From contig CAZQXN010000002.1 in the NCBI GenBank assembly GCA_964597545.1, positions 88,234 through 152,233 of the forward strand: DNA of 64,000 nucleotides, written 5' to 3'. The notes beneath the pieces are model-generated. The model was not told the DNA's origin and made no database searches. It worked only from the letters and a program-made list of their open reading frames with translations. Shown here one piece after another: positions 18,623 through 48,800 of the stretch (its first letter is position 1; every line of letters begins with the position of its first letter). The DNA comes from an uncultured Planctomycetia bacterium. Its GTDB lineage: Bacteria; Omnitrophota; Gorgyraeia; 1-14-0-20-64-10. The position numbers and the translations under genes are program-made.

Positions 18623-18626
18623 GCCT

Positions 18627-18675
18627 GGTACCGGGTACAAATGCTCTTTTTGAGTGTACCCGGTACCGGTTTTTT
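18627..18675 (+). terminator. Perfect 13-bp-stem hairpin (ggtaccgggtaca-N15-tgtacccggtacc) followed by a T7 run. It is a Rho-independent terminator for the upstream gene and also the left REP-like element flanking the RAYT gene.
   Basis: Arms 18627-18639 and 18655-18667 are exact reverse complements. 'ggttttttt' follows immediately, 5 nt after the stop at 18622. Confidence 0.75.
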
Positions 18676-18708: not shown

Positions 18709-19281
18709 ATGGATATGGGAAGGCAACATCGAATAGTAAGCGAGACTGGCTGCTACCATGTTGTCGCGCGCGGCAATAGCCAAAAAGCGGTCTTCCGGCA
18801 GAAGCAAGATTACTGGGCGTATCGCCATCTCTTAGGGGAATATGGGAGGCGCCATGCCGCACAGATCTACCACTATTGTTTAATGAGTAATCATATCCAC
18901 CTGGCGCTGCGCATTGAGAGCCTGAAGCAGCTTAGTCAGATGATGCATGACGTGCAACGTGCATATTCCCGGCATCGCCAGATGCAGGATCAAGTAACCG
19001 GACAATTGTGGCAGGGGCGGTTCCAAAGCTACCCCATCAATGATGAAAACTATTTTTTGGCATGCGGGCGCTATATTGAACGTAACCCCATAGAAGGTGG
19101 ACTAACAGCCGACCCAGGAAATTATCCTTGGTCAAGCTATCGGTTTTATGCGTATGGCGTAAAGGACTGGATTGTAGTTGCTTCGCCGCTCTATGCAAGT
19201 ATGGGCAGGGTGCCCCAGGAGCGTCAGAGTGCCTATCGCACCTTCATTGACAATGGTACCGGGTACAAATGCCCTTTTTGA
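18709..19281 (+). CDS. IS200-like / REP-associated tyrosine (Y1, HuH) transposase
   Basis: 'YHVVARGNSQKAVF', HuH motif 'CLMSNHIHLAL', 'YIERNPIEGGL...YPWSSY' (catalytic Tyr region). The annotated 3' end reads into the right hairpin, so the true stop may lie slightly upstream or the hairpin is translated. Confidence 0.7.
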   Translation: MDMGRQHRIVSETGCYHVVARGNSQKAVFRQKQDYWAYRHLLGEYGRRHAAQIYHYCLMSNHIHLALRIESLKQLSQMMHDVQRAYSRHRQMQDQVTGQLWQGRFQSYPINDENYFLACGRYIERNPIEGGLTADPGNYPWSSYRFYAYGVKDWIVVASPLYASMGRVPQERQSAYRTFIDNGTGYKCPF

Positions 19282-19305
19282 GTGTACCCGGTACCGGTTT
19301 AGGGG

Positions 19306-28331: not shown

Positions 28332-28343
28332 AAGTGAGGATGG

Positions 28344-30601: not shown

Positions 30602-30603
30602 CC

Positions 30604-30633
30604 TTGACAGGGCAGGATAACTCAGGGTATTTA
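30604..30633 (+). promoter_or_regulatory. Promoter candidate (TTGACA-N18-TATTTA) in an AT-rich leader upstream of the ROK regulator gene
   Basis: TTGACA at 30604-30609 and 'tattta' at 30628-30633. The 30600-30700 interval is markedly AT-rich relative to the window. Confidence 0.3.
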
Positions 30634-30717
30634 TAACTGTTTGAATACATTACAATTCGGTATCAGGGGCTGCAGCCTACAGCGCCTGATGCTGCAACCT
30701 AAAGGGACTTCCCACAC

Positions 30718-31920: not shown

Positions 31921-32070
31921 GGGGTTACCCGCCTGCGCGTATTCCCTTAAGGTGCGGGGTCGCACCATCCGCGGTTGACGAATGGGTTAAAGGCGCTTGA
32001 GGCGCCAAAGACAAGAGCGGTACCATGTAGTCCGCAACTTCTTCTAAGACAACTCGTTACAACAACATCC

Positions 32071-32102
32071 GGTACCTGGTACCAATTACAGGTACCGATT
32101 TT
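32071..32102 (+). promoter_or_regulatory. Palindromic GGTACC-core motif (ggtacctggtacc ... ggtaccgattt) 15-45 nt upstream of the GH94 start codon. Candidate operator, or a REP-family element.
   Basis: The same 'aaatcggtacc(a/t)ggtacc' unit recurs at 45785, 45927 and 45954 in this window. Confidence 0.35.
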
Positions 32103-32117
32103 AACGTTGGAGGCTTC

Positions 32118-34568
32118 ATGCAGTACGGACATTTCAGCTCAGATGGGCGCGAATACATCGTAACCCGCCCCAACACCCCCCGCCCATGGTTCAACTACCT
32201 CTTTAACGACGTCTACCACTGTTTGATCTCCCAGACCGGCGGCGGTTTTTCCTATTACCGGGATCCCAAGTACTATCGGGTCCATCGCTACGACCACATC
32301 AGCTCAGACCGACCCGGCCGCTACCTCTTCCTCAAGGATGTGACCAAGGGCTCGGCTGCGAAGGAGCCGATCTGGTCGCTCAACTGGCAGCCGTCCTGCA
32401 AGAAGCTGGACCGCTGGGAAGCGCGGCACGGCCTGGGTTACACCAAAATTTCCTCGACCCACAACGGCATCCAGGGAGAGATCACCTACTTTGTGGCCAA
32501 GGAGGCCCCGGTAGAGCTGTGGCTGGTCTCCTTGAAGAATGCCTCCAAGCGCAAGCGCACCCTCTCGGTCTATCCCTTTGTGGAGTTTGTCAGCGGCGAC
32601 GTGGCCCTGGAAACCCATTACCGGAACATCCTCTGCCTCTACAACGAGGCCGCTTTTGATCCCAAGTCCAAGGCGATTATCTCCTTCAAGCATCCCTTCA
32701 AGAAGGAGCACAAGCCGGGCTTCGCTTTCTTTTCAACCACGCTTCCCGTTGACAGCTGGGAGGCCCACCAGGAGCACTTCCTGGGTCCCTACGGCCACCG
32801 CTCTACTCCGAAGGGGTTGACCCAGACGCGCCTGGGCCGCCATGCCGTGCGCGGCGAGGACATGGTGGGTGTCTTCCAGAGCACCGTGACCTTGAAGCCC
32901 GGAGAGTCCAAGGAGTTCGCCGTGGTCTTAGGAATGACCGAGATGCGGGATGAGATCTCCAAGCACCTCAAGCATTTTCGCTCGGTGGAGCAGGTGCGCC
33001 GGGAGCTCGACTGCGTCCGGGAATACTGGAGAGAATCCTTGGAGTCGATCTGGGTTGACACACCGGACAAGGATTTCAATCTCATGGTCAATCTCTGGGG
33101 GAAATATCAACTCTTTGCCATTACCCACTGGCGGGGCACCTCCCATTACCACGGGGCCGAAGGGGGCCAGGGGTACCGCGACACCTGCCAGGATGTGGAG
33201 GGGCTCTTAAGCCTGGACACTCCCACCTCCCTGGAGAAGCTGGAGCGGCTGCTTTACTATCAGTACAAATCCGGCCATGCGGTCTCGGGGTTCTCCGAGG
33301 TCGAAGGCACTTGGGAGAACACCGGAGCAGCCGGGGTCATCAAGAAGGCAGATGTGGCGGTCTGGCTGCCCTACAGCGTCGTTGCCTACATCAAGGAGAC
33401 CGGGGACACCGATTTCCTTAAGAAAGAGATTCCTTTCCACGACACCGGATCAGCCACCGTCTATGAGCATGTGCTTCGCGCTGTGCGCTACCTCTACAGC
33501 GCCCGCGGCAAGCACGGCCTGCCCCTGATCGGTCACGCCGACTGGAACGATGCCTACGACCATGTGGGCGTCAAGGGCAAGGGTGAGAGCATCTGGCTTG
33601 GGATGGCGCTGGTTCGGGCCTGCAAGCAGGTGGCCGAGCTTGCCGAATTCATCAAGGATGAGAAGGTGGCCCAAGAGATGAAGGAAAAGGCCGAGGCCTT
33701 GACCCGCATTGTCAACCGGGAGGGATGGGAGGATTCCTGGTACCTGGCTGCCTTCAATGACGAAGGCCGAAAGATCGGCTCCAAGCAGAACAAAGAGGGC
33801 AAGGTACCCTTGAACTCCCAAACCTGGGCGATCCTCTCCGGGGTGGTGTCGCAGGAACGGCTGCCCAAGATCCTAGACCGGATTGACCGGACGCTGGGCA
33901 CCCCTTATGGGCCGGCTCTCTTCCTGCCCAGCTATACCGCCTTCAATCCCGGGATCGGGCGGGTGACCGCCTTTGCCGCCGGCACCAAGGAGAATGCAGC
34001 GGTCTTTTCTCATGCCTGCGCTTTCAAGGTGGTGGCTGACTGCACCATTGACCGCGGCGAGCAGGCGTACGACACCTTCGCGAAACTCATGCCCACTTCC
34101 AAGGCCAAACGGGACCACGACCGGTACAAGGTTGAGCCCTTTGTCTGGTCTGAGTATGTGATCGGCCCGGGCTCGGCAGATCGTTTCGGGGAAGGGGCCT
34201 TCACCTGGAACACCGGGACCACCCCCTGGATGTACAACGCCGCCACCGAGTGGATGCTGGGGGCCCGGCGGGAATTCAAGGGCCTCTTGATTGACCCCTG
34301 TTTGCCGAAGCGGTGGAAGTGGGCCAAGATCAAGCGTCCGTTCCGGGGGGCGACCTACGAGATCACCATACGCAATCCCGAAGGGGTGACCTCCGGGGTC
34401 AAGAAGCTTACCGTCGACGGTGTCGAGCAGGAGGATTGCCTGATCGAACCGCACGGAGACGGAGAGACCCATGAGGTTCAAGTGGTTTTAGGTCGCGCAG
34501 GCGGGAAAAACCGCCGCAAGAGGAATACCTCGACAGCTCGACAATCCGGTTTGTACCAAAGGGTCTGA
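32118..34568 (+). CDS. GH94-family glycoside phosphorylase (cellobiose / N,N'-diacetylchitobiose phosphorylase-like)
   Basis: N-terminus 'MQYGHFSSDGREYIVTRPNTPRPWFNYLFNDVYHCLISQTGGGFSYYRDPKYYRVHRY...GRYLFLKD' closely parallels the cellobiose phosphorylase N-terminus ('MRYGHFDD..REYVITTPHTPYPWINYLG...LSHQAGGYSFYRDAK..RLTRY...GRYLYV'). Its ~800-aa length fits. Substrate assignment to chitobiose is only suggested by the nag context. Confidence 0.8.
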   Translation: MQYGHFSSDGREYIVTRPNTPRPWFNYLFNDVYHCLISQTGGGFSYYRDPKYYRVHRYDHISSDRPGRYLFLKDVTKGSAAKEPIWSLNWQPSCKKLDRWEARHGLGYTKISSTHNGIQGEITYFVAKEAPVELWLVSLKNASKRKRTLSVYPFVEFVSGDVALETHYRNILCLYNEAAFDPKSKAIISFKHPFKKEHKPGFAFFSTTLPVDSWEAHQEHFLGPYGHRSTPKGLTQTRLGRHAVRGEDMVGVFQSTVTLKPGESKEFAVVLGMTEMRDEISKHLKHFRSVEQVRRELDCVREYWRESLESIWVDTPDKDFNLMVNLWGKYQLFAITHWRGTSHYHGAEGGQGYRDTCQDVEGLLSLDTPTSLEKLERLLYYQYKSGHAVSGFSEVEGTWENTGAAGVIKKADVAVWLPYSVVAYIKETGDTDFLKKEIPFHDTGSATVYEHVLRAVRYLYSARGKHGLPLIGHADWNDAYDHVGVKGKGESIWLGMALVRACKQVAELAEFIKDEKVAQEMKEKAEALTRIVNREGWEDSWYLAAFNDEGRKIGSKQNKEGKVPLNSQTWAILSGVVSQERLPKILDRIDRTLGTPYGPALFLPSYTAFNPGIGRVTAFAAGTKENAAVFSHACAFKVVADCTIDRGEQAYDTFAKLMPTSKAKRDHDRYKVEPFVWSEYVIGPGSADRFGEGAFTWNTGTTPWMYNAATEWMLGARREFKGLLIDPCLPKRWKWAKIKRPFRGATYEITIRNPEGVTSGVKKLTVDGVEQEDCLIEPHGDGETHEVQVVLGRAGGKNRRKRNTSTARQSGLYQRV

Positions 34569-34687
34569 CCCCTACGTACAAGAAGGTAACCCGTTACCCC
34601 TTTCGGGGTAAGAGAAAATGTTAGGTATAATTAAATCTAGTTCACACCCTTGACTTTTAACGGGTTAGAGGGTATATTTTAACTACA

Positions 34688-36475
34688 ATGGTTGCTCATC
34701 CCAAACCCATACATCCCCGAGTGGGTTGTAGCCGAGCGGCTGCCGGGCTTGCGCTTCTTCTTGCCGGAGCATCCCTTGCTCTGGCAGCCCCCGAAGAGCC
34801 CCCCGCCACCTTCTGGGAGCGGCACGGCAAGGTTGAGGAAGAAAAACCCGCTTCCACCACCGCCACCGATTACCGCCCCCAGGGCCCGATTGAGCAGATC
34901 CCCTTAACCTTAGCCACCTTACGCATCCCCACCCAGCACGGCTCCTTAAAGCGTGACCATTCCGCACGGGAGCCGATCATCGTTCACATCCAGGATGCCC
35001 ATGCCAACTATGAAGCCCAGAAGCACCTGGCCGCGATCTTAGAGCACCTGATCCTCTCGCATGGCCTCTCCCTGGTTTTGGTGGAGGGGGGTTCCCGCAA
35101 CGACTCTCTTTCCTACATGCGCACCTATGCGCCTTTGCAGAAGCGGCGCGAGGTGGCAGAGGAGTTCTTAAAGGCCGGCAAGATCTCCGGCGAAAATTAC
35201 CTGGATTTGACCAGCGACTACGATTTCACCGTCTACGGCATCGAGCGGCCTGAGCTTTACGACGAGAACATGGAGGCCTTCTTCAATGTGGAGCGGGTCC
35301 AGAAGAGCGCTTTGGCGGCCATCTCAGGGTTCCGAGAGGCGGTCGCCACCCTCAAGACCCAGCTTTACCCCCAAGCGGTGCTGGATCTGGAGGCCAAGGA
35401 GCAGGAGGTCAAGGACGGCCTCATCCCCCTGGCCCACCATTACGAACAGCTTTCCAATGAGGCCAAAGGGGCAGGGGTGAAGGTGGATGAGGAGGAGCTT
35501 CCCAACTTCATGCGCTTCTTGAATGCCAGCCGCCTGGAGCGGGAGATGGACTTCAAGGCCGTGGAGGCGGAGCGGACCAAATTCCTGGAATCGCTCACCC
35601 GAACCTTACCCAAAGCAGAGATGGATTCCCTCCTGGATCAGAGCCTGGAGCTCAAGCGCGGCCTCATCACCCCCGCCTCGTTCTACGGGCACTTAAAGAG
35701 CTATTTCAAGCCCGAGGCGGAGGGGGACTACCCGGTCTTGACCCGCTACATCCGGTACCTGGAGCTTTTCGATGGGATCGACCACGCCGCCCTCTTCACC
35801 GAGGTTGAAACCCTGAGTGACAAGATCAAGATGAGCTACCTGAACAACCGTTCCCAGAAAAAGCTTTTCCAGGTGGCCAAGGATGTGGGGGTATTGGGAG
35901 ACCTGCTGGACCTGAAGCTGACCCCGGATGCCTATGAGTATTACCGCACCCACAAGCGGGAATTCAGGCCCGATCGCTGGGCCGACACCCTTCGGGGCCT
36001 GGGCAGGCGGCAGAAGCCCAAGCTCACCTTTGCCTTGACCCCGGGTCCCTTGAATGCCGCCATGCCGGCGATGTCGAGCTTCTACGAGGTGGCCCGCAAA
36101 AGGGACGAGGCGATGGTCGCCAACGCCTTAAAGCAGATCGAGGCCTTTGAGGTGCCCTTTGCCGTGCTGATCGCCGGAGGTTTCCACACCCCGGCCTTTG
36201 AGCGCCTCTTCAGAAAGAGCAAGGTTTCCTACGCGGTGGTGGCTCCCAAGGTGGGCAAGGTGACCGCCGCCGACACCGAGAAGTACCACCGGGTCTTAAA
36301 GGAGACCTATGTTCCGATGTCAGAGAAGTACCGCAAGAAGATGGGAGTTGCCCCTGTCGCCGCACCCCTGCGCGCTGCGCGTGAGACAGAGCCGATTTCC
36401 GGCGCAGGCGCAGTGACCTCAAGGCCGCCCACATCCTCGGAGGGCGTGGCAGTCGCCTTCGCCCCAGAGGAGTAA
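34688..36475 (+). CDS. Secreted hypothetical protein (595 aa) immediately upstream of the 3089-aa gene
   Basis: Signal 'AAAGLALLLAGASLALAAPEEP'. I recognise no catalytic motif. Confidence 0.35.
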   Translation: MVAHPKPIHPRVGCSRAAAGLALLLAGASLALAAPEEPPATFWERHGKVEEEKPASTTATDYRPQGPIEQIPLTLATLRIPTQHGSLKRDHSAREPIIVHIQDAHANYEAQKHLAAILEHLILSHGLSLVLVEGGSRNDSLSYMRTYAPLQKRREVAEEFLKAGKISGENYLDLTSDYDFTVYGIERPELYDENMEAFFNVERVQKSALAAISGFREAVATLKTQLYPQAVLDLEAKEQEVKDGLIPLAHHYEQLSNEAKGAGVKVDEEELPNFMRFLNASRLEREMDFKAVEAERTKFLESLTRTLPKAEMDSLLDQSLELKRGLITPASFYGHLKSYFKPEAEGDYPVLTRYIRYLELFDGIDHAALFTEVETLSDKIKMSYLNNRSQKKLFQVAKDVGVLGDLLDLKLTPDAYEYYRTHKREFRPDRWADTLRGLGRRQKPKLTFALTPGPLNAAMPAMSSFYEVARKRDEAMVANALKQIEAFEVPFAVLIAGGFHTPAFERLFRKSKVSYAVVAPKVGKVTAADTEKYHRVLKETYVPMSEKYRKKMGVAPVAAPLRAARETEPISGAGAVTSRPPTSSEGVAVAFAPEE

Positions 36476-36504
36476 CCGAGTCGACAACCCGGGAGGTTGA
36501 ATTC

Positions 36505-39500
36505 GTGAAACGACAACAGAGTGGTTGTGCGCGCCGATTGATTTCCGCACTTACAATCCTTTCCTTTATCTTTACACAAGCTGTTCCGGCGTGGGCACTG
36601 CGGCCGACGCAAGAGGAGGCCTCGCCACGCGCCTCTGCGCTGCGGGAGTCCCAGGAAGACAAGACCCTTCTTCAACTGCGCCAGGCCTTGTTTCAAGTAG
36701 GACGCTTTTTCCGACCGGCTTCAGCCTCCCCCGCGACAGGATTGGAGGAGACTCTAAGGGTCGCAGCCTCCATTCATCCACCCATTACCCTGCGAATCGG
36801 TGCGGATAGAATCTCCACCCTTCATGCCGGCCGCCACACCCGTGTTGAGCGTGGAGATTGCGGTTGTTTTGTCCGGGTGGGAAAGCCGCAGAGCCAGGGG
36901 GGGCTTGATCCCAATGAACTGGTTTTGACCGCGGCTCGGGCTTTGGAGCCCCGCGGCTATCAATCGGCCAGCGCCGGGGTCATTACGCTTGGAGATGATC
37001 CCAGCTTCGACGTTCGCAAGGTACTCGGAGGTGCGGATGAGTTGGAGCCGATCCTTAGCGGACATCCCCTGCCGGATGGCGGCGTGCAATTGGTCCACCT
37101 TCGGTGGCCGACAGAGGGAAAGCCTTCAGAGGATAACCAGCATCCCACCATCATTCGGCCGGATCAGACCAACCCGGCCGAGGTCGAGTTCATCTTTAAT
37201 GGGGACATCACGAACTTTCGGGAGATCGATGATTTTCTGGCGGAGCACGGTATTCACCGGCCCAGCGGCGTGGAGACCGATGCCTGGTCGGCAGCGGCGC
37301 TGATCTGGTACTACTTCCAGCTGCCCTCTGAAGAGCAGATTTCGGGCAGGGCCAAGGCAATCTACATGAGGGATCGGATCGAGGGCAGGGATAAAGAGAA
37401 TTGGGAACAGGCCGCAGAAGAGCTTAAGGCCGAAGGAGTTCACATGCCTTTGCTGGAGGCGGTTCATCTGGCCTATGGTCGCCTGGAAGGGGACTTCGCC
37501 CTGATCGCAGTTTCCGAGAAGGAGCCGGGCAAGGCCATCGGCGCTCTCAAGGGACAGAAGCCCCTTGTGGCGGGGCGGGGTCAAGATGCCGAAACCGGAA
37601 ACTTCCTTGCCTCAGAGGCCTCCACCTTCATTGATTATACCGACCAGAATCAAACCCTTCAGTCGGGAGACATCGTGGTGCTCACGCAGGATGAGGTGAC
37701 CTTTTATCGCCGGAGGGAGGAGGGTCACCCGGGCAGGTTGGCCTTGGAGGTGATCCCCCCCGAGGAGCGCCCCATTCAACCGCTTGATATTGAAGAGGTG
37801 AAGGTGAGCAAGGTGTTCCGGGGCAGGGAATTCTCAACCTTTACCGAGAAGGAGGTTGCTGAGGGAGGGGAAGCCATACGCAGAACCATAGAGCATCAGG
37901 GTCGACTCCCTGTCCTGCGGGACCGGATTGAGGGCCGCGCAGAGCCGATGCCCGGATTGAATCTTACGGATGAAGACTGGCGAAAGGCCCGCGGACTTCT
38001 TCTGGTTGCCATGGGAACGGCCAACTATGCTGCGGAAGCGGCTGCCCCTCACCTGTTCGGCGATCTGGCTCTGGGGGGGGATTCTCCGGAGCCTTTTTCC
38101 GTGCGCGTTGAAACCGGCACCACTCTCTTCGATGTCTTAAGGGCTCAGATTCTCACGCTTGTCCGCCGGTCCGATCCAAACGTGAGGCAGCCAACCGACT
38201 TAGACGGCTGGGTGGCACTGATTAAGCAGCACCAAGGCGGTGCGCTCAAGCCCCTGTTTGCTCAATACCAAGGATTCATCGGAATTGCCGTCAGCCAGTC
38301 CGGCAACACCATGGATACCAACCAGATTGTGATCTTGCTTCAGGCGCTCGGGGTTCGCTTCATTGGGGTGGTGAACAAGCCGATCGATACACCCCTGCCC
38401 CGGTTGACCAAGGAGGATGGAGGGCTCTTTAGAACCAAGGCCGGGGCAGAGATGGGTGTGGCCTCGACAAAGGCCTTTGTCGCGCAAGTGATTGCGCTCA
38501 GACTCATCTCTGTCTATGCGGGTCTGGTCCGGGAGACCCTCCCCCCGGATGAGGCCGCCATGCAATTGGGGGCAATCCACAACCTGCCCGGCATTGTTGA
38601 GAAGTGGCTTGCAGACCCGAGCAAGCAGGAAGCGATCCGGAGGATTGCCCGCTTGCTCGCCAATCAGCAGACCTTGATGTTTCTTTCCCGCGGAGTGCAG
38701 GTTCCCGTCTCCAAGGAGGGGGCGCTGAAGCTGCTTGAGCTGGCTTATCTGTTTACCGTGGGGATGGATGCCGCCTTGATGAAACACGGTTTTATCGCCT
38801 ATTTCCCTGAGTCCCGGGACCCAGCTTTCACTAAGTTTGCTGTGGCGATTTTGACGGACCGGGTCAGCTTAAAGGAAACCTTGACCAATCTGAGTGAGGC
38901 TCGGAGCCGTTATGGACATGTGGTGGGCATCGCCTTTGAGAGCGACCGCGCAGAAGTGCTTCCTCACGTCGATGATCTCATCACCATCCCCGATGTTCCC
39001 GATGAGTTGGCCGCCATCGTAGGCGTTTTGCCTCTTCAAGCTTTGGCTGTTGAAACCACCAAGCGGATCAACAGAACCGGGGAGAATCTTGCTGCTTGGG
39101 CGGAGATGCTCTATTGGAAGCTCCGACAGTTGGAAACCGGAGTCAGCGGGGTTACTCAGCAGGAGCTTTTCAAGACCGCAAAGAGTGTTTTAGAACATTA
39201 CAGCCGGTTTACAGATGACGGACGCCTCGAGCTGCTGCCCACCGCCAAGACGCGTCAGGTTTACTACCTGATCAAGGCCGCGGTTGAGGCGGGAGAGCAG
39301 GGAGAGTATTCACAGATGGAGGCGGGTGTCCGGGATGCAATCCGCGCCCTTCGAGGACAGAGCCTCTCTCTGATCATGTTTTTTGATCATGAACTGGCCC
39401 GTCTTGCAGCCCCTGATCAGGATGAGTCGGATGCCATTCTGACGGCGCAAGAGCGGGCACAGGTGGTCCGTATCATGGGAGATGTTTCCTTCGAGGAGGG

Positions 39501-42500
39501 GAATACCCCCTCCGAAGTGCTCAAGAAGCTTTCGGCAGATCTGGCTGTCTTCTACAGCCAGGCGGTCAGCCGGGGTAGCACCATGAAGGGGCGGTGGAGG
39601 GATTGGCGGTTTAACAAGGGGCTGGGTACATTCCTTGGACGGGATCTGGATAAGCCCCGAGGGCTGGCCAAGGAGGTGACCGTGGATCTGCTTGAAGCGG
39701 ATCTGCGGAGCCAATTGGCCAACCTGGGGGTTCCGGAGGATCAGCTGGATACCACATTCCTCGGTCTTCAGGAGTTGCTGCCGGGGGGACAGATTCATGA
39801 GCAGCCCGGGGTACTGAAGGTTGTTGCTCGGCTTTCAGGTGTCCCTGAGGGAACGCTGCGCCGCCGAGCCATGATGCATGAACAGGCCCACCAGATATTG
39901 CGCCGGGCCGCCCCATCGCAGGATCTGCTTTGGGCCGTGCATCAGGCGGTTGAGGCGGCCGATCTCAGGCGCGTCGAGGAAGATCCCCGCTCCTTCGTCC
40001 CTTTTCAAGCCGCCTTCGAAAAAAGGTTTCGCGGCGGCCACTTTCCCACACGGCAGAAGTTTCTTGAGGAGCTGGTGGCCAAGTACGCCCTTGCCCGACT
40101 GACCGGCACTGCAGAAACGCGCTATGCGCAGGTCGCCCCGGAGATGGAGCAGCTCTTCAACGGCACGAATCTTGATTGGCTGCCTGATGTGAAGGAGGCA
40201 TTGGCGGCTGATCTGGGCATTCCTGCGGAGCGGATGGATCAAGCGGGCATGATGCCCGGGACCTTTGGCCAGCTTTTTGATCCCAGCTTCCGCCCAGAGT
40301 GGGACCAGCGGGCTTCCACTGCCACCCCGGAGGTGATCAAGGCCAGGCAGATGAGCCGGCTGGGGCGAGCACTCGGTTTACAACCGGGGTTGGGGTGGGA
40401 CGCCAGAGAGATGCGGCTCCAGAGATCATTGGCCCGTTACGACCGCGCCCTGCGGACAGCGGCTCCGATTCCAAAGGTCGACCCCGCTGTTCAGGCGGGC
40501 CAGGAGGAGGGGGGGCTCGTTGTTTTCGAGGTGGGCGAGGTCGCCCTGGACAACGAGGTTCGCTACACCCCAGCGAAGCGTTACGCAGATCGACAGTACA
40601 GGCTGGACCGCGCTTTGATGGATATGGTCCGTCCTTGGTTGGAGGCGATTGGGGCGGAGATCAGCGTCAAGTATGGCGATTCTTTGGCCAGGAGCTGGAG
40701 ACACCCGCAGCCTTCCGGCTCTGATCAGAGGCGCTTCTTTAGACTGGAACGGGGAGATGCAGTTGCAACCATCGCTCCGGCCTATCGAGGCCCAATGGCA
40801 GCAACGGCTCATCGGATCTTGCTGGTTGCTGTCAAGGATTCCCCTCAGGAGCCAACGCGCTACTGGCTGCTGCCTTCGGACAGCCGCCTCCAGAACAGAT
40901 TGCAGCGGCTCGCAGGGCATTTCCTGAAGGGCGAGCCCATTCCGGGGCCCCTGCTGTCCGGCTTCCTCTCCCCAGAGCTTCGGTTCGCAACCGATGTTCT
41001 TGATGCCGCAGCGGAGCGTTTCATCCAGCTTCAGTGGGAGCATTCCGAGGAGGTGAGACTCACCTTTGGCGATGCGATCCCCGGGCCCCAAGCGAATCAG
41101 ACCACCCTTTTCATCATAGGACCGCGCCATTCGCACGGCATGCTTGATGCCTTGACGACACCATTGAATCCGGACCATGCGGATCTGAATATCTCAGCGT
41201 CTCGTTCGATCGATAACGTTGCCGCCTTTCCCTTTGATTTCTGCTACGTTGTTGTCGACGCACCCCCGGAGCAGTTGCGGCAGCCGCGCGACACCTTAGA
41301 CGGACAGAGCGTTCTGGGTGCGATTCGAGAACGGGTTGATACCTTGAACCGCTTACGAACCCCTCAAGCACTTCCTGTAAAGCCCGCCACTTCATCTCCG
41401 CCAGCCGTGACTGCCGGCGGCCTGGAGGAGCTGGTTGTAGGGCGGGACTATGCGGATGCTCGGCACGTTGCGGGAATCCAATTTTTGCAGGCTGTCCAGC
41501 TCAGCGGCCGCACGCGGCTTGGCAGCGGGATCTATCTGGATCCCACCCATGGAGGGCAATTTCCGGATGCGGTGATCACGATCGGCGAAGGAACGGTTCT
41601 CTTTGATAATGCCAAGCTCTACGGCCCCATGGTCATTGGCAGAAGTGCCGAGGTCGGCGGGATTCTGGCGGGGACCGCCGAGAGTCCCCTGATTGTCGGC
41701 GCGGGAGCCACGATTCACCGATCGAACGCCGACGTTAAACGAAGTGTTATCGGGCCGGAGGCCGTGGTGGATGGAGCCGACATCGCCGATTCGACTGTGG
41801 TGCCGTTTCTGCGGGGAGTTCGGATTATTGCTCCGGCCGCGGCGGACACCGGCGCTGTTCTGGAGGGAGGCGCAGTTGCCTTCGGAGGGACTGTCGGGAC
41901 CCACGTCAAGCTACGGCGCCATTCGGTGGTAGGCCCCTTTGCCGCATTGGGCAATGCATCAGAGCACAAAGGGGTGGTTTTCATCGGGGCGACCCCGGAT
42001 GCCAATATTGAATTCCCCCATGCCGGTTTTACCGCATCGCTCATGGCGACCGCATTTCTCCCTGAAGGAGATCCGGGTTCCAAGGCGTATTACGACTCTT
42101 ACCGGCAGACCCTTCGGGCGGTGATGTTTGGCGAGTTGGTTGATGCGCGAAAAGCCGACCTCCCATCCCGCTCACCGGTGTCTGGCTCGGGTGCCGCGTG
42201 GCAGTTGGTCTACGCGGTGGATGATTCGGACGTTTCCTTCATGGCGATCCGAGATAACTTCGGGGCTTTTACAGCCGTCAGTGACTACAATTCGTTCACC
42301 GGAGAGAAATCCGGCTCCACCGCCGAAGGGGGAACGGCAACCGGAGTCCACTCGGCTCTGAAGGCCCCAGTTGCGCTGCGCCACCTGATTGCCGTTGGCA
42401 ATCTAAGCCAGGCCACAGGGGATGTGGCCGCCGGGACGCTGACTGCGGGGACGGATCAATTCACCCTTCCGGAATACCGCAGCCTCGAGAGGCCCTTTGC

Positions 42501-45500
42501 CCTCGGCAGTCACTTTGACCAGGATGTGGCTGTTCAGATGGATTACTTCAGGCGGCTTCAAGTGATGGCCGAGGTATTCCTGGAGGGCGCTCAGCGGGCG
42601 CAGGATCCATTTACCTTGGCCGGTTTTACGGCCTCCCTTGAGGCGGTTCGAGGCCAATACCAGGAGCTGGGTCCGCGGTTTCGCAAGGCGCTGGAAGGGG
42701 GCCTGGACCGCACCATTGAAGCGGTTACCGCCAGGATTCAATCTGTCTCCTCTGACGAAGGGGAACGCCTCGGTGAGCGGCTGGATCGCTTCAAGCAGGT
42801 TGTTGAGGGCAGGCCTCAAGTCATTTCCGAGCTAGAGACCATCGGTGAGGCCATCGGCAGCGCTGCCGACGCTGTTGCGCCCGCCACCCAAGCGTCCATT
42901 GCCCAGGCGGTTGTCCAGCAGACCATTAATCCCGGCTCTGTCTGGGTCAATCCGCTGGCTGCCTCCGGTCTGGAGGAGGAGCCGCTGGATAAGGTGATTG
43001 AGCATCTGCTCGCCGTCCCGGCCGGACTCTCCATCCAGAACCCTCAGGCTTATTGGCTTGAGCAGATGGCGGCGGCTCAGGTGAGCGACCTTGATTCGCT
43101 GGAGGTTTTTTTGTCGGATAGGGCAGTTCCGAATGATGCCCTGGATTTCCAACAGCGGCAGCGTTTGCTGGATCTTCTGGACAACTACGACGCCCTCCAC
43201 CAGGTTTTCCGGGTGAACATGGAGATGAGCCGCCTAGAGACGGTCAATCTGATCCTGGCCCAGGCGCAAGCCAACGATTCAACGTTCGCGCAGGAGGTCC
43301 GGGGCGTTCTGGATGTTCCGGATTCCGCGCTGCCCACCGGCGGCGAGCTTGAGGAGATCATCCGTTTGGCCGAGGTGCTGATTGAAGCCGGCGGCAACAG
43401 CGCCCGGGCAGTCCGGGAGATGGCCCGGGCGGCCCAACGGGTTGCCATCAGCGAAACCCCGGTCCATGACGACGGCGGCAACTACGGCAAGTGGCGCTTC
43501 TTGCTGGAGGAGCTCTTTGGCCGGTTTCTGGTTTCATTGGGAGGGGACCTTGCCAACCACCGGACCGTGGAGCCGACACATTTGATTCGGCAGGTCATGG
43601 CCGACCGGCTCCCGCAGAAGGGAACGGAGGCCTGGACCGATGCCGATACCCCTCGATCCCTTCTGATCAAGGAGATCGCCACCGCCTTTGCTTCTTACCG
43701 GCTTCAGCACGGTGAGCCGGATTTTTCAGAGGAAGCGTTCCTGGTGCGGACGCTGGCCAGCTTGATCTCCGCGCACCGGATCTTAAGCAGCGCCTTCCCT
43801 GACATCCTGGAAACCAAAGTCCTCTCCAAGGCAAGCAGCCAGAATGTAGCCGGTGTGGCGGTCGCGCTGCGCTCCGGCTTCCTGGTTCCGCAGACGCAGA
43901 CGGTCAACCCCGAGCAGCTTGCCAGAGCCCTTCTTCTCTGGAACCGTCTGTTGGGGTTGTCCAAGCGGGACGGGATGGTGCTGCCGGCGACCCTGGACGG
44001 GGCACGGCTCTATTTTGTCTACTCGGATCGCCTCGCGGCGGAGGAAGCGTCTCCAGAGGGTGTTGTAGAGTCCATTCGGCTGGGAGATGCCGAGATCGAT
44101 CCAAACGATTACTTCGTCCTTGCGCTGCCCGGCAAGAGCCTGGTCTTGACCGATGGATTGGGCCGGCGGCTGCAGTACGAGGCGGGTGAGCGCGCCTATG
44201 TCGCTCGAGAAGACGGCGAAATAGTCAACCGCTTCGAGGCGTTTCCCGCCCAGATCAGCAAGGCGATCCACCAGCGGCTCAGAACGGTCGATGAGATCTC
44301 CCTGGTTCGCGGGGAGGACCACGCCAGCGAAGAAGACACCCTCTACAAAGATGCCCAGGTCATCGCCTGGGGGGCAGAGTTCCCCTACAGAGCTCTGCCT
44401 CAGGCAAGCCCTGTTTCGCAGCGGCTGTATCAGGCGATTCTGGACGGTGAAACGCAAATGGAGACCATCGTCTTTGGACCCGGCTCTGAGGGTACCTCCA
44501 TCGCACCCCTCTTCTGGCGTCGAGAAACAGTGGAGTTTCTCCGGCAGCTTGCTAAGCGCAGGAGGGATGGCAGGCGGGTACCCAGGGCGGTCTTCATCTT
44601 CAATCCAACCGAGACCAACGACTCCTTTGGCCTGGGGGTTGAAGGGCAGATCCGCAACCACGAGATGATCATGCGCGAGGTCCTCAAGGATGAGACAGTT
44701 CAGTTTGAGGAGCTCTTTCCGGAGATCCTGCTCTTTGACCACACCGATCCCTGGGTGACCGCACCGAACCCGGCGGTGGCCAAGGAGATGGAGCAGATCA
44801 CAGGCAAACCGGTTGCGCCTGAGGATGTGGATTATGCTCGGATTCTCGGCCCTTCAGCGGATGAGGAGGCGGCCGGAGTGATGCACGGCCGCGTCAAGAA
44901 AAACCGCCGGCCGCTCCCTGTTGACGATGCGCTCATCCAACGACTCAGAGATCGGTTCGAGGCGGCCGGAGGAAAAGTCCATCTGGCTCCCTTTGCCGAT
45001 GTTCGGGCAACGGTGGAGTCCAGCCGGGGCAAGATCTCCATTGAGGCACGCGTGCAGGCCATCACCCACCGAGCGGCTCCCATACTCTTTCCAAAGAGCA
45101 GGGACCTTCTGCTTCAGGCCGCTGTCCGGCAAGAGGGCCGGATCTACGAGCAGAAGCACGGAACGCTCCCAGCCCCGCAGCAGCTGGCAGAGTTCCTCAA
45201 CAAGTTCGGGTATGAGACAAATGCCGACGAGGTTGCTGCCATCGCCGCCGGCCAGGAGGAGGCGGATCTGCTTGTCAGTGAAGCCATCGCCTCGGGCCAG
45301 CTTGCCGCCCAAGATTTCTACGCCAAGCCCAGTTCCGCGGGGGGGACCACCTACGTGGTCCCGGTTCCGGCCCGGCAGGAACCAGCCCCCATGGAGCTGT
45401 GGTGGCAGGCCGGCCTTGAGGAGCCCAAGACAGTACCCCCTCACACACGGAAGATCCTCTACGCTGCCACCCTCGCCGCAGCCATAGCTCAGCGCAACGA

Positions 45501-45774
45501 TCAGCCCCCCGCAGAGAACGCCCGATTTGTCCTCAATGAAGCTGTTGCCGGGGGCAACCCGGCCCTCTGGCTGCCGAGCCGGCATCCTCTGCCACCCTCC
45601 ATCACCCTGACCGAGGAGCTTTCCATTCAACTGGTGGCCTCTGCGCAGGAGTTTCCCCGGACCATTGCCCTTTTGCTGGATTTGGCCGAGAAGGCCGGCA
45701 TGACGCTTCGGATCAACGCGCTCCGTTTCTTCACGGTGGAGAATCAGGTCTATGCCATCGTGACAGCGACGTAA
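36505..45774 (+). CDS. Giant secreted multidomain protein (3089 aa). It has a signal peptide and the conserved post-signal module. It embeds a full-length diverged GlmS-like region (GATase-II-like plus two SIS domains) at ~36859-39110 and a left-handed beta-helix at ~41521-42030. Recurrent G-L/Q-E-E linkers punctuate it.
   Basis: Single uninterrupted frame. N-terminus 'RRLISALTILSFIFTQAVPAWALRP..RASALRESQ'. See the domain features below. Confidence 0.7.
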   Translation: MKRQQSGCARRLISALTILSFIFTQAVPAWALRPTQEEASPRASALRESQEDKTLLQLRQALFQVGRFFRPASASPATGLEETLRVAASIHPPITLRIGADRISTLHAGRHTRVERGDCGCFVRVGKPQSQGGLDPNELVLTAARALEPRGYQSASAGVITLGDDPSFDVRKVLGGADELEPILSGHPLPDGGVQLVHLRWPTEGKPSEDNQHPTIIRPDQTNPAEVEFIFNGDITNFREIDDFLAEHGIHRPSGVETDAWSAAALIWYYFQLPSEEQISGRAKAIYMRDRIEGRDKENWEQAAEELKAEGVHMPLLEAVHLAYGRLEGDFALIAVSEKEPGKAIGALKGQKPLVAGRGQDAETGNFLASEASTFIDYTDQNQTLQSGDIVVLTQDEVTFYRRREEGHPGRLALEVIPPEERPIQPLDIEEVKVSKVFRGREFSTFTEKEVAEGGEAIRRTIEHQGRLPVLRDRIEGRAEPMPGLNLTDEDWRKARGLLLVAMGTANYAAEAAAPHLFGDLALGGDSPEPFSVRVETGTTLFDVLRAQILTLVRRSDPNVRQPTDLDGWVALIKQHQGGALKPLFAQYQGFIGIAVSQSGNTMDTNQIVILLQALGVRFIGVVNKPIDTPLPRLTKEDGGLFRTKAGAEMGVASTKAFVAQVIALRLISVYAGLVRETLPPDEAAMQLGAIHNLPGIVEKWLADPSKQEAIRRIARLLANQQTLMFLSRGVQVPVSKEGALKLLELAYLFTVGMDAALMKHGFIAYFPESRDPAFTKFAVAILTDRVSLKETLTNLSEARSRYGHVVGIAFESDRAEVLPHVDDLITIPDVPDELAAIVGVLPLQALAVETTKRINRTGENLAAWAEMLYWKLRQLETGVSGVTQQELFKTAKSVLEHYSRFTDDGRLELLPTAKTRQVYYLIKAAVEAGEQGEYSQMEAGVRDAIRALRGQSLSLIMFFDHELARLAAPDQDESDAILTAQERAQVVRIMGDVSFEEGNTPSEVLKKLSADLAVFYSQAVSRGSTMKGRWRDWRFNKGLGTFLGRDLDKPRGLAKEVTVDLLEADLRSQLANLGVPEDQLDTTFLGLQELLPGGQIHEQPGVLKVVARLSGVPEGTLRRRAMMHEQAHQILRRAAPSQDLLWAVHQAVEAADLRRVEEDPRSFVPFQAAFEKRFRGGHFPTRQKFLEELVAKYALARLTGTAETRYAQVAPEMEQLFNGTNLDWLPDVKEALAADLGIPAERMDQAGMMPGTFGQLFDPSFRPEWDQRASTATPEVIKARQMSRLGRALGLQPGLGWDAREMRLQRSLARYDRALRTAAPIPKVDPAVQAGQEEGGLVVFEVGEVALDNEVRYTPAKRYADRQYRLDRALMDMVRPWLEAIGAEISVKYGDSLARSWRHPQPSGSDQRRFFRLERGDAVATIAPAYRGPMAATAHRILLVAVKDSPQEPTRYWLLPSDSRLQNRLQRLAGHFLKGEPIPGPLLSGFLSPELRFATDVLDAAAERFIQLQWEHSEEVRLTFGDAIPGPQANQTTLFIIGPRHSHGMLDALTTPLNPDHADLNISASRSIDNVAAFPFDFCYVVVDAPPEQLRQPRDTLDGQSVLGAIRERVDTLNRLRTPQALPVKPATSSPPAVTAGGLEELVVGRDYADARHVAGIQFLQAVQLSGRTRLGSGIYLDPTHGGQFPDAVITIGEGTVLFDNAKLYGPMVIGRSAEVGGILAGTAESPLIVGAGATIHRSNADVKRSVIGPEAVVDGADIADSTVVPFLRGVRIIAPAAADTGAVLEGGAVAFGGTVGTHVKLRRHSVVGPFAALGNASEHKGVVFIGATPDANIEFPHAGFTASLMATAFLPEGDPGSKAYYDSYRQTLRAVMFGELVDARKADLPSRSPVSGSGAAWQLVYAVDDSDVSFMAIRDNFGAFTAVSDYNSFTGEKSGSTAEGGTATGVHSALKAPVALRHLIAVGNLSQATGDVAAGTLTAGTDQFTLPEYRSLERPFALGSHFDQDVAVQMDYFRRLQVMAEVFLEGAQRAQDPFTLAGFTASLEAVRGQYQELGPRFRKALEGGLDRTIEAVTARIQSVSSDEGERLGERLDRFKQVVEGRPQVISELETIGEAIGSAADAVAPATQASIAQAVVQQTINPGSVWVNPLAASGLEEEPLDKVIEHLLAVPAGLSIQNPQAYWLEQMAAAQVSDLDSLEVFLSDRAVPNDALDFQQRQRLLDLLDNYDALHQVFRVNMEMSRLETVNLILAQAQANDSTFAQEVRGVLDVPDSALPTGGELEEIIRLAEVLIEAGGNSARAVREMARAAQRVAISETPVHDDGGNYGKWRFLLEELFGRFLVSLGGDLANHRTVEPTHLIRQVMADRLPQKGTEAWTDADTPRSLLIKEIATAFASYRLQHGEPDFSEEAFLVRTLASLISAHRILSSAFPDILETKVLSKASSQNVAGVAVALRSGFLVPQTQTVNPEQLARALLLWNRLLGLSKRDGMVLPATLDGARLYFVYSDRLAAEEASPEGVVESIRLGDAEIDPNDYFVLALPGKSLVLTDGLGRRLQYEAGERAYVAREDGEIVNRFEAFPAQISKAIHQRLRTVDEISLVRGEDHASEEDTLYKDAQVIAWGAEFPYRALPQASPVSQRLYQAILDGETQMETIVFGPGSEGTSIAPLFWRRETVEFLRQLAKRRRDGRRVPRAVFIFNPTETNDSFGLGVEGQIRNHEMIMREVLKDETVQFEELFPEILLFDHTDPWVTAPNPAVAKEMEQITGKPVAPEDVDYARILGPSADEEAAGVMHGRVKKNRRPLPVDDALIQRLRDRFEAAGGKVHLAPFADVRATVESSRGKISIEARVQAITHRAAPILFPKSRDLLLQAAVRQEGRIYEQKHGTLPAPQQLAEFLNKFGYETNADEVAAIAAGQEEADLLVSEAIASGQLAAQDFYAKPSSAGGTTYVVPVPARQEPAPMELWWQAGLEEPKTVPPHTRKILYAATLAAAIAQRNDQPPAENARFVLNEAVAGGNPALWLPSRHPLPPSITLTEELSIQLVASAQEFPRTIALLLDLAEKAGMTLRINALRFFTVENQVYAIVTAT
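36859..39110 (+). other. GlmS-like (glutamine--fructose-6-phosphate aminotransferase-like) region inside the giant protein: a degenerate class-II glutaminase-like domain followed by two SIS domains
   Basis: 'CGCFVRVG' (cf. N-terminal CGIVG), 'LEPRGYQSASAGVI' (cf. 'LEYRGYDSAGLAV'), 'LVHLRWPTEGKPSEDNQHP' (cf. 'IAHTRWATHGEPSEANAHP'), 'IFNGDITNF' (cf. 'VHNGIIENH'), 'IAVSQSGNTMDT' (cf. 'SQSGETADT'), 'GVASTKAFVAQV' (cf. 'GVASTKAFTTQL'), 'KEGALKLLELAYL' (cf. 'LEGALKLKEISYI'), 'PLQALAV' (cf. 'PLQLLAY'). Several catalytic positions are substituted (T to E in 'WPTEG', E to N in 'SQSGNT'). Confidence 0.65.
41521..42030 (+). other. Left-handed parallel beta-helix (hexapeptide-repeat, acyltransferase-like) domain inside the giant protein
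   Basis: 'VITIGEGTVLFDNAKLYGPMVIGRSAEVGGILAGTAESPLIVGAGATIHRSNADVKRSVIGPEAVVDGADIADSTVV' shows the [LIV]-G-x-x-x-x periodicity. Confidence 0.5.
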
Positions 45775-45784
45775 CCTTAAAATC

Positions 45785-45797
45785 GGTACCAGGTACC
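45785..45797 (+). repeat. ggtaccaggtacc palindrome in the 46-nt spacer between the two largest genes. It is the first of three closely spaced copies; the others are at 45927 and 45954.
   Basis: 'aaatcggtaccaggtaccaaag' in the intergenic spacer. Confidence 0.8.
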
Positions 45798-45820
45798 AAA
45801 GAAAAAGACACGACGAGATT

Positions 45821-48800
45821 ATGAATGGTTTAGACAACAGAAAAATCTGGATTCGACTCAGCGCCTGGGTGGTGATCCAGGCGCTGGTTGTTACCCATCT
45901 TTCCCCGGCCTTTGCTGAACCCAAAATCGGTACCAGGTACCAAGATCAGAAATCGGTACCTGGTACCAAGACCTTGCGGGCAAGCCAACGGGAGTCCAAG
46001 GGGGGCCTTGAGGAACTCAGAGAGGCCCTCACCGAAGACGCTCCTCAGGCGCCTACCGAAACTTCCCCTGCTTCCGGTTTGGAAGAGACGATGGTGGATG
46101 CAGGGGGAGTTCATGGCCCCGGTTTCGGGCTTCTGCTTGAAGCGGATGAGGCGGCGTTGGGGCGTTATGGGACGGAAGCGGCCAAGGAGTTTGCGAAAAC
46201 AGGAGTTCCGGTTCCCAAGCTGGGCGAGGGCGAACGGGTCGGACGCTCCAGTTTGTCTTTTTCCGGAAGGGCGAACGGAATCTTCGGCCGCGCCAAGATC
46301 GGGCAGTTTCAGCTGAATGCAGAGGAGCGCCACCGCCGGCCGCAGGCGGCAGCGACCCGAAACCGGCTTCAAGCGGGCTTGAACTTCTTAGCCGGTCAGC
46401 AGCGGCGCGAGAGAGCCCAAAGTGAACTCGTCCTTGAACTGCTCCCCTTAATCACCCCCCTGGTTCGCCTTAACGCCTCTGCGGCGGCGCTGAGGAGCGC
46501 TGAGCGCCGGATGGATGAGCTCATTGATCGGTTGGATGCTCTCGGGGAGGGCAGGGGAGTCCGCGCTGAGGTTGCCCGTCAGCTTCAGGCACATCTTGAG
46601 GCGTGGAGAGGCGGCGCCGGGGAAAATCAACTCATGACTCAGGCGCAGAGAGTTCTGCTCGCCCAGCGCGTGGATGCCTTAATCCTGGAGGGTCAGCTCT
46701 CTGCTGGGGCGTTGCAGCAAGCAGAGCGGCTCCAAGAACAGCTGGAGCAGGAGCGCTACGGGGTCTATGAAGATCAAGCGCCAGAGAAGCAAAAAGGGAT
46801 TTCTTTCAACGGAGTCTCTTTGATCGCGCATCTGATCTCTTTTGCCCGGATTCCGACCCAGCGCTTAGCCCAGCGCCTTGCCCAGAGCAGCGCCAAAGGG
46901 AGAATCCCCTTGGAGCTGTGGGTAGATCACGATCGCCTGCTGGACATTCCGCCGTTGTCTGATTTGCGGTACCGGGGCGAGGAGCGGGTGATGCGCCTGG
47001 ATTTGACCACTCCTCACAGGGTCAACGGTTTTGATGCTGGCGGGCAGTTGTATGGTTTGGCCCTCTTTAATCAACTTCAGGCTGTGGTTCAAGCCGCTGA
47101 GCCGGCCGGACCCACTCCTCCCTGGTTGGACCCGGTGGAGTTGGGCGCCAAGGAGAATCTCTTAACGAGCTTTACCTGCTATGAGACCTGGGCCCCTCAA
47201 GCTCAGCAGGCCCTTGCTCAGACCTTGAAGGATCGCCACATCGACAGCGGCCACCATTTCAGATGGTTCCTGACCAGCGGCGCTTATGGGACGCCGCTGG
47301 AGAAGGAGTTGGCGGCCGAGCGGCTCATGGGCCGGACACGGCTTGTCCTGGAATATGACCAGGGTGATCCGGATGATCCCGAGTCGATCATCTCCATACT
47401 CGAATCCGAAACCGATCTGGAGGTTTTGAGCGATCGGATCGCACCCCTACTCACAGGCAGCGCCAGTCCGGCAATGGCCGCGGCCAATGCCGCACGAGTA
47501 GGGCGCTGGGCGCAGAGCACCGGCCGACTGCTGGTGGGCACCCGAGCGGGACTTGCCTCCTTTGTGGAGGCGATTGCGATGGCCGGAGCCCGCCAGCTTT
47601 CCGTGAAGGAGTTGGAAGCCCAAGTCCGGGGCTTGGTGGCTTGGCTGGATGAAACCCGGGTGGATCTCCAGACTCCGGAGCTTGGGGCGGTTAGAGATTT
47701 CAGTGCGGTCAGAGGGGTTGCGATGGAGTTGGTGAACCTCGCCGGCCAGAAGACCGTCTTTGATGCCCAGCTTCAGGGGGCGATTCAGCGCTTTGACGCG
47801 CGGCTTGGAGAATTCCATGCCTCGGTAGTGAAGGAGCTGCGCTCCTTAAGAACAGAACAGGCCGGGGTCATAGCGCGAGAGAAGGCGGCGAGCGGCCGCT
47901 CCAGGCGCGAGAGCCGTTTGGCCCGGGATCTTGCCGTGATCCAAAAGAAGGTGGACCAGCTGGATGGCATCATGAGCGCTCTTAAAGAGGCGCGGGCTCA
48001 AGCTCCCAAGGGAGAGCCCGTCCAGGTCATCATCTTCCAGCGGCCTTCGGCCAGAGGGGTGCGCAACATTGCCGTGGGCGCTACCGGCAAGGACATCTAC
48101 TTCTCTACCGATCCCAAGCTGAATGCTCTCTTAGCGAAAGGCGCCCACAACGCCCACTTCACCCCATTTGAGCGGGTTTATATTGCCGTGGTGGATGTCC
48201 TGGTCGAACCCCTTCCGGCATACGCCAATTTCTTCATGCTTGAGCTGAAGGGCGGCCGGAATGAGCTGGTTCCCTTTGTGGACCGCAAGGCGATGCTCGC
48301 GATGTTTTCCAACTCATCCGACAGCATGCGCCAGAACATCCGGCACCGGTTTGAGTCGTGGTGGATCGGCATGGCCCAGCGGATTGTGGCGCGCCAGATG
48401 CAGGCAGAGGACGAAGTGGAGCGGATCCAGCGAGAGCACGGGGTGGATGAGGCCGATGCGCTCCGTTGGCTCATCTGGGAAAGGGGTTGGGAGCCGCTGG
48501 TGGGGCAGGTGGCGGCGGTTGCGGAGCGGACGCGCGATAATCTTCTAGAGCAGGTTTTTTCCCTCAAGGGAAAGTACCTGATCGATGAGCGGGATGCCTT
48601 GGAATTGGCGGTTCGGGATGATAGCTCAACCCAGAATCTCTTAGGCCGCCTGCGGGATCAGGCGGAGGCGGCCGATGAGCCGTTTGACCAGTTTCTGGAC
48701 ACCTTTACCAGGAGGCACCGCCTGATTCAGCGGGGCAGGGTACTGGCTCAGCGCGCCCTGGAGAGACCCCAAGGCATGTTCCAGGTCCATAATCTCACCA

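Follow-up and report, generated by a model that had tools for sequence, protein, structure and literature searches.

The repeated unit and its copies in the window

The stretch of DNA analysed here, to which we refer as the window, covers 64,000 nt of the genome of an uncultured bacterium of the phylum Omnitrophota (assembly GCA_964597545.1, contig CAZQXN010000002.1, positions 88,234 to 152,233). It includes a gene for a winged helix-turn-helix (wHTH) protein of the ROK family (30718-31920), a gene for a GH94 phosphorylase (32118-34568), several giant genes, one of which encodes a protein of 5062 amino acids (aa), and a transposase gene (18709..19281). A first-pass annotation had noticed a unit of about 19 nt that is repeated four times near the GH94 and the 5062-aa genes. 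It proposed that the unit is an operator recognised by the ROK regulator or, failing that, simply a set of copies of a repetitive extragenic palindrome (REP). Our analysis of the unit, of its occurrences in other genomes, and of the transposase gene, which lies 13 kb upstream of these copies, points to the second possibility, i.e., to repeats that belong to the system of a REP-associated tyrosine transposase (RAYT).

The number of copies is far above what is expected by chance. There are eight matches to GGTACC-N-GGTACC in the window when one mismatch is allowed, against 0.05 in dinucleotide shuffles, and none of 100 shuffles reached eight. Half of the matches, four against a chance expectation of 0.05, are exact copies of GGTACC-W-GGTACC (where W is A or T), at positions 32071, 45785, 45929, and 45955. 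They are part of a 20-mer, AAATCGGTACCWGGTACCAA, that is identical at 45780, 45924, and 45950 and has three mismatches at 32066, whereas the chance expectation is none. The remaining four matches, which the first-pass annotation had not listed, are one-mismatch relatives (GGTACCGGGTACA / TGTACCCGGTACC) located around the transposase gene, at 18627, 18655, 19255, and 19283. Although intergenic DNA makes up 1.9% of the window, five of the eight matches are intergenic. The unit (a variant with G at the centre is described below) starts with a 5' foot, (T)AAATC, continues with a GGTAC-CWG-GTACC core, and ends with AA(G). The core is a 13-nt near-perfect palindrome that arises from two direct GGTACC hexamers. 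The description in the first-pass annotation of a dyad with 13-bp spacing has to be corrected on this point, because the hexamers are 7 bp apart from centre to centre and 13 bp is the length of the whole core.

Folding with DNA parameters shows that a lone unit forms at most a 5-bp stem with a triloop (-2.6 kcal/mol) and that a stem of 13 bp arises from two units whose centre bases are complementary. The folding z-scores of the palindromic elements range from -4.6 to -7.0. Of 38 pairs of neighbouring units, 25 are complementary at the centre base; the proportion becomes 22 of 26 once two Firmicutes loci with tandem arrays are left aside. The region from 17000 to 64000 of the window has no match to an Rfam family at gathering thresholds, and a search of the literature with the core sequences found no paper. 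Two simple explanations were discarded: a KpnI-type restriction-site effect leaves the fixed foot, the doublets, and the linkage to RAYT genes unexplained, and a CRISPR-like array is ruled out by the gaps of 13-14 nt and the alternating orientation.

The placement of the four copies is as the first-pass annotation had given it, and so is the ROK-family regulator at 30718. One copy precedes the GH94 gene, whose ATG is at 32118. This unit ends 33 nt upstream of the ATG, and an inverted half-site on the minus strand (32091-32101, AAATCGGTACC, previously noted as 'ggtaccgattt') ends 17 nt upstream. Both are part of a degenerate inverted REP doublet (32066..32102; atcCGGTACCTGGTACC-aattaca-GGTACCGATTTT) with a 9-bp stem (-9.3 kcal/mol, z = -4.6), which stops 6 nt short of the GGAGG ribosome-binding site of the gene. 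Another copy is a solo unit (45779..45799; AAAATCGGTACCAGGTACCAA; 5-bp stem, CAG triloop, -2.6 kcal/mol) in the 46-nt spacer ahead of the 5062-aa gene (45775-45820). It sits inside an operon, beginning 5 nt past the TAA of the preceding 3089-aa gene and ending 21 nt ahead of the ATG at which the 5062-aa gene starts. The last two copies were described as lying about 100 nt into the 5062-aa gene, and they indeed begin 103 and 129 nt into this open reading frame (ORF). They form a doublet of 48 nt (45923..45970; codons 35-50, KIGTRYQDQKSVPGTK) that resembles the REP doublets forming hairpins (REPINs) of other bacteria, with complementary centres (A, then T) and a 13-bp stem (-14.5 kcal/mol, z = -5.8). 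The two units begin at codon positions 2 and 1, respectively, and are thus read in two different frames. Hence, the repeat exists at the level of DNA, not at that of the protein.

Variants of the unit bracket a RAYT-type transposase gene

The transposase gene (18709..19281, plus strand) is the only Y1 gene of the window and encodes a RAYT-like HuH/Y1 tyrosine transposase of 190 aa. The protein matches Pfam Y1_Tnp (E = 2e-13), and its HuH motif (H62, H64) and catalytic tyrosine (Y122) are invariant in 26 homologs. The best NCBIfam model is that of the REP-associated tyrosine transposases (NF047646, 67.7 bits), and the IS200 model scores 18.2 bits. When we searched PDB with the single sequence, nothing was found; only the profile of the family reached a structure, the best match being E. 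coli TnpAREP (4ER8, E = 1.8e-7), with ISDra2 TnpA ranked below it.

Two REP hairpins of the same family (D13) flank this gene. The left one (18626..18672; TGGTACCGGGTACA-N15-TGTACCCGGTACCGGTTT) is 47 nt long and has a 13-bp stem (-17.3 kcal/mol, z = -6.4). The right one (19254..19300) is 98% identical to it, has the same orientation, and folds with the same energy and z-score (-17.3 kcal/mol, z = -6.4). It overlaps the end of the RAYT gene by nine codons plus the stop codon, and the C-terminal tail of the protein, NGTGYK, is encoded by GGTACCGGGTACAAA. Both hairpins are built from GGTACCGGGTACA arms, a 'G-centre' variant of the unit: the arm AAACCGGTACCGGGTACA and the unit AAATCGGTACCAGGTACC match at 15 of 18 positions. 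REPtrons are recognised by just this arrangement, a transposase gene with copies of a repeat on both sides and further copies scattered elsewhere (PMC6006769, PMC3116915).

The repeat is linked to RAYT genes in many lineages

The five closest homologs of the RAYT (49-53% identical; L025, L032, L112/L113, L114, and L115) are encoded at the chromosomal site that the gene also has in the window, between a DUF4954 gene and a minus-strand gene. All five syntenic lineages have GTACC-N-GGTAC repeats in the flanks of the RAYT gene, and the centre is A or T in four of them. The exact unit of the window (AAATCGGTACCAGGTACCAAG) is found upstream of the RAYT gene of L025, with ATCGGTACCTGGTACCGATTTT directly past the stop codon; W-centre doublets occur in L032, L112/L113, and L115; and L114 has a G-centre pair, as does the window. 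The RAYTs of L066, L058, and L077 have flanking repeats too. Several syntenic RAYTs terminate in ...VPGT or ...PGTK, and these tails are encoded by GTACCTGGTACC. RAYTs with G-centre flanks do not cluster separately from those with W-centre flanks, all pairs among the six syntenic proteins (that of the window included) being 50-63% identical.

A scan of metagenomes added 80 RAYT loci (35-49% identity), of which 79 remained after removing redundancy. These contain 17 matches to the motif, 16 of them within the 150-nt flanks of a RAYT gene, at seven independent loci. The flanks represent 6.8% of this metagenomic sequence (binomial P about 3e-18). The 17th match adjoins a truncated RAYT fragment. 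Across many lineages, the repeat is thus physically linked to RAYT genes. The flanks of more distant RAYTs contain other, unrelated repeats (L027), which agrees with the expectation that each RAYT lineage has a repeat of its own.

A probable REP-RAYT system of an atypical kind

We conclude that the units belong to a RAYT system as its REP/REPIN-like repeats, of an atypical kind without the canonical GT[AG]G tag, and we give this interpretation a probability of about 85%. What had been offered as a fallback, that the units are simply REP copies, is thus the part of the first-pass annotation that is borne out, because the motif brackets a RAYT-type transposase gene both in the window and at many related loci. 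The unit family would be cognate to the lineage of RAYT-like HuH/Y1 transposases resident in this Omnitrophota genome and would exist as singlets and as hairpin-forming, REPIN-like doublets, and the gene with its two flanking hairpins would make up a REPtron. By analogy with E. coli TnpAREP and the transposases of IS200/IS605, the RAYT would mobilise the repeats by recognising single-stranded hairpins, cutting them, and rejoining them, thereby dispersing copies. These would mostly land in spacers directly past stop codons and occasionally in frame within a tolerant coding linker, here past a signal peptide. The repeats may also affect the mRNA stability or the translation of neighbouring genes.

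The system has much in common with the REP/BIME/REPIN sequences (BIME, bacterial interspersed mosaic element) and RAYT (TnpAREP) REPtrons of E. coli, Pseudomonas, and Stenotrophomonas: the repeats are short, palindromic, and mostly found in spacers just past genes; they exist either singly or as inverted hairpin doublets; they bracket a HuH/Y1 gene that keeps a fixed chromosomal site across relatives; and occasional copies are in frame inside genes (PMC3116915, PMC5581495, PMC6006769, PMC3733652). REPs within genes, often near the N-termini, are documented (PMC3733652, PMC6006769), as are the general roles of REPs (PMC3479197). There are also clear differences. The hairpin foot of canonical REPs bears a conserved 5' tetranucleotide, GT[AG]G or CGTC (PMC6006769, PMC3733652), whereas this tag is missing from the unit, whose core consists of two direct GGTACC hexamers. 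The residues of E. coli TnpAREP that contact GTAG (E100, H101, and R104; PMC6006769) are not conserved in the RAYT of the window. Finally, classical REPs are lineage-specific, whereas essentially the same repeat sequence is found here in several phyla.

Several observations weigh against our interpretation. Neither the unit nor the hairpins flanking the RAYT gene contain GTAG, GTGG, CGTC, or their complements. Only four dispersed sites were counted, within a window of 64 kb, and the NF047646 score of the transposase is below the curated cut-off of 80. The RAYT gene of the window is bracketed by the G-centre variant and the dispersed units have a W centre. The latter could rely on a different RAYT or could be relics. 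Moreover, the RAYTs of the window and of L025 are 50% identical, whereas the neighbouring genes are 90-96% identical. This RAYT thus diverges far faster than the genes around it, which is unlike the slow vertical evolution described for classical RAYTs. When the two loci are aligned (window 18626-19300, L025 3040-3815), nucleotide homology stops exactly at the outer repeats. This suggests that the hairpin-RAYT-hairpin cassette has been replaced, or has diverged very fast, at a fixed site.

Such a cassette could also be an active insertion sequence (IS) of the IS200/IS605 type. The hairpins would then be its ends, the solo units and doublets would be miniature derivatives, akin to miniature inverted-repeat transposable elements (MITEs) or palindrome-associated transposable elements (PATEs), and there would be no domesticated RAYT-REP system. 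Like the gene of the window, IS200/IS605 elements and their PATEs involve a Y1 HuH transposase with subterminal hairpins, and presumably single-strand cut and paste. The protein matches Pfam Y1_Tnp, the whole cassette is only 675 bp long and differs as a block between close relatives, L063 has two copies of the gene (one truncated), and most homologs are on very short contigs, as expected of multi-copy elements that break assemblies. However, the RAYT model and the TnpAREP structure fit the protein better than their IS200 counterparts. There is a single Y1 copy in the 64 kb and no tnpB, the two flanks carry a hairpin of identical type (98%, same orientation) instead of distinct left and right ends, and the dispersed units, of 20-48 nt, lack the context of IS ends. 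Furthermore, six lineages have the gene at the same site, with neighbouring genes that are between 41% and 96% identical. Long residence is therefore favoured over repeated insertion. Taken together, these observations make an IS200/IS605 element unlikely.

Palindromes past the probable signal peptides of giant genes

The doublet inside the 5062-aa gene spans exactly 16 in-frame codons, K35-K50, directly past a probable signal peptide, which we recognised by inspection (basic n-region, hydrophobic core, and AFA followed by EP). The first 600 aa of the protein (window 45821-47620) have no homolog at E <= 1e-5 in a collection of 5.8 billion proteins. This copy resembles the Rickettsia palindromic elements (RPEs) and in-frame REPs in that a palindrome fills a whole number of codons (16) in a probably tolerant linker past a signal peptide. 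It differs from the RPEs in being much shorter (48 nt versus about 100-150 nt) and in being linked to a RAYT. Since no homolog of the 5062-aa protein without the segment was found, the candidate insertion may also be a case of long residence.

A second palindrome occupies the homologous place in another giant gene. The gene that starts at 61032 has in common with the 5062-aa gene a leader of ~80 aa (52% identity), and alignments of the leaders place opposite the 45923-45970 doublet a perfect 30-nt palindrome (AGTATCGGGTACAAG followed by CTTGTACCCGATACT; 61143..61172; -15.6 kcal/mol, z = -7.0). Its arms (ATCGGGTACAAG) resemble those of the hairpins flanking the RAYT gene (CGGGTACAA). In the third paralogous leader (36505), the linker is about as long and contains no palindrome.

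One could consider instead that the units are structural elements of RNA or DNA selected by the host, with mainly post-transcriptional roles as stabilisers of mRNA 3' ends, as modulators of translation near stop codons, or as a pause hairpin past the signal peptide. REPs of E. coli affect mRNA decay and the translation of the upstream gene. The doublets of the window fold into stable hairpins, one unit begins 5 nt past a stop codon, and two paralogous giant genes have a strong palindrome at the same place past the signal peptide. Yet the elements are absent from orthologous loci, the leader at 36505 lacks the palindrome, the solo unit folds weakly (-2.6 kcal/mol), and no Rfam family matches the region from 17000 to 64000. 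The linkage to RAYT genes accounts for the distribution of the units without any function for the host, and we regard selection by the host as a very improbable explanation for them.

The leaders have further features of their own. The giant genes, three in a row with products of 3089 aa, 5062 aa, and more than 989 aa, have only this N-terminal part of ~80 aa in common (36505-36750, 45821-46065, and 61032-61265). It comprises the signal peptide, LRxSQ, and GLEE, and no similarity is detectable beyond it. The bulk of neither giant protein has a Pfam domain, except for a SIS domain in the 3089-aa protein. In two of the genes, the part encoding the signal peptide contains a hairpin with a 10-bp stem (CAGCGCCTGG-N8-CCAGGCGCTG, at 45859-45886 and 61074-61101); the two stems are identical and the loops differ at most positions.

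The ROK-GH94 locus lacks the unit in related genomes

On the regulatory reading, the unit would be an operator of the adjacent ROK (NagC/Mlc-like) repressor, or of another dimeric helix-turn-helix regulator, that would co-regulate the GH94 phosphorylase and the genes of giant secreted proteins. This reading has its appeal, with a 13-bp near-perfect palindrome situated 17-52 nt upstream of the GH94 start and beside the gene for a winged-helix ROK protein. A palindromic site near a sugar-catabolic gene and next to the gene of a ROK regulator is also what one sees for operators of the NagC/Mlc type. Known operators of this type are AT-rich sites of 23 bp. The unit differs from them in being GC-rich, in not being kept in orthologs, and in not being at a promoter, and it is also found past stop codons, in coding sequence, and around transposase genes.

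The comparison with orthologous promoters that the first-pass annotation had envisaged goes against its operator. We identified four orthologous ROK-GH94 contigs from related Omnitrophota (L021-L024; 13-22 kb each), in which GH94 is 73-76% identical and the gene order is kept (ABC transporter ... ROK - GH94 - ~590-aa gene - giant gene). The pattern GTAC[CA]N[GT]GTAC has zero occurrences in these contigs. Their four ROK-GH94 spacers are 15-43 nt long, versus 197 nt in the window, and contain no counterpart of the 32066..32102 doublet. Promoter boxes, by contrast, are kept across the orthologous loci: TTGACA-N17-GTATTTATAA upstream of ROK (about 30600-30645), AAATCTAGTT..TTGACT-N17-TATATT upstream of the 595-aa gene that corresponds to the ~590-aa gene of the orthologs (about 34634-34680), and TTGTCAA..TAGACT in the divergent HAD/ABC spacer (about 24650-24690). 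No sigma-70-like promoter was found in the GH94 spacer of the window (31800-32200 scanned). Since the motif is absent from the orthologs and the spacer of the window has no promoter, the motif is not a conserved operator but a lineage-specific insertion in an enlarged spacer.

GH94 lies 15-43 nt past ROK in the orthologs, where both genes are probably transcribed together from the conserved promoter upstream of ROK. The other copies in the window, 5 nt past a stop codon and within coding sequence in two reading frames, are not where an operator would be expected either, and the motif brackets transposase genes and occurs in unrelated phyla and unrelated contexts. We see hardly any chance that the units are operator sites. 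The conserved promoter boxes are better places to seek the operator of the ROK protein.

This region and its surroundings contain other repeats. A second palindromic family (TGTACCAAAGGGTCWGACCCTTTGGTACA) is present at 28267-28332, in the spacer past the ORF at 26974-28266, and at 34552-34580, over the stop codon of GH94 (34568). A third repeat (GGGACGGTCCATTTTGGGACA) forms an inverted pair (30535-30555 and 30570-30590) in the enlarged spacer upstream of ROK, and a further copy (61019-61039) covers the TTG with which the third giant gene starts (61032). Near the beginning of the window, the 3' parts of two adjacent large genes (3593-4098 and 6992-7494) are 85-90% identical over about 500 nt, and in the second of these genes a 21-nt unit is repeated three times in perfect tandem (6232-6303).

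The unit in other phyla

We searched 596 Gb of species-representative genomes for the exact 19-mer AATCGGTACCWGGTACCAA and found it in 20 places, for which we estimate about 9 chance occurrences under equal base frequencies. Six of the places are on different contigs of a single metagenome-assembled genome (MAG) of Planctomycetia; others are in MAGs of Herbinix, Clostridiales, and Anaerolineaceae, and none of the 20 is in Omnitrophota, so that this collection does not include the source genome. Most occurrences are one half of the same doublet as in the window, here of roughly 46 nt, AAATCGGTACCAGGTACCAA-N6-AATCGGTACCTGGTACCG, with unrelated flanks, and outside Omnitrophota the unit often starts right at a TAA. 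We retrieved 8-kb loci around the motif in these other phyla (L001-L020). In the AT-rich genomes, most matches lie outside ORFs of at least 120 aa; the same measure is uninformative for the Planctomycetia contigs, which have 64% GC and long spurious ORFs in every frame. None of the loci has a RAYT gene near the motif, which tells nothing, since RAYT genes are few in any one genome. The distribution in other genomes is that of a small mobile repeat, not that of a regulon. In the Clostridiales and Herbinix MAGs, the GTACCWGGTAC core is also repeated in tandem, in direct orientation and with a period of 12 or 22 nt (L007, 300-380 and 6095-6160; L016, 295-345 and 3960-4040); no such arrays were seen in the window.

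These occurrences lead us to a broader suggestion, which we make tentatively and with somewhat more doubt than confidence. The GTACC-N-GGTAC palindromes might represent a so far undescribed 'GTAC-core' superfamily of REPs, separate from the GTAG- and CGTC-tagged ones and served by a RAYT subclade without the GTAG-contact residues. Its repeat would be near-unchanged across at least four phyla (Omnitrophota, Planctomycetota, Chloroflexota/Anaerolineae, and Bacillota/Clostridia), and its cassette, when close relatives are compared, would be exchanged, or would diversify fast, at a fixed chromosomal site.

Implications

Our results remove a false regulatory lead, since there is no shared operator that would tie GH94 to the cluster of giant genes. 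The in-frame doublet past the signal peptide is a further example of selfish palindromes that are tolerated inside genes. More generally, a REP-RAYT pair is documented in the uncultured phylum Omnitrophota, with a repeat that lacks the canonical tag and is nonetheless nearly unchanged in distant phyla. This would broaden the known range of sequences recognised by RAYTs, and it would provide a marker for such elements in metagenomes, where breaks in assemblies probably result from them.

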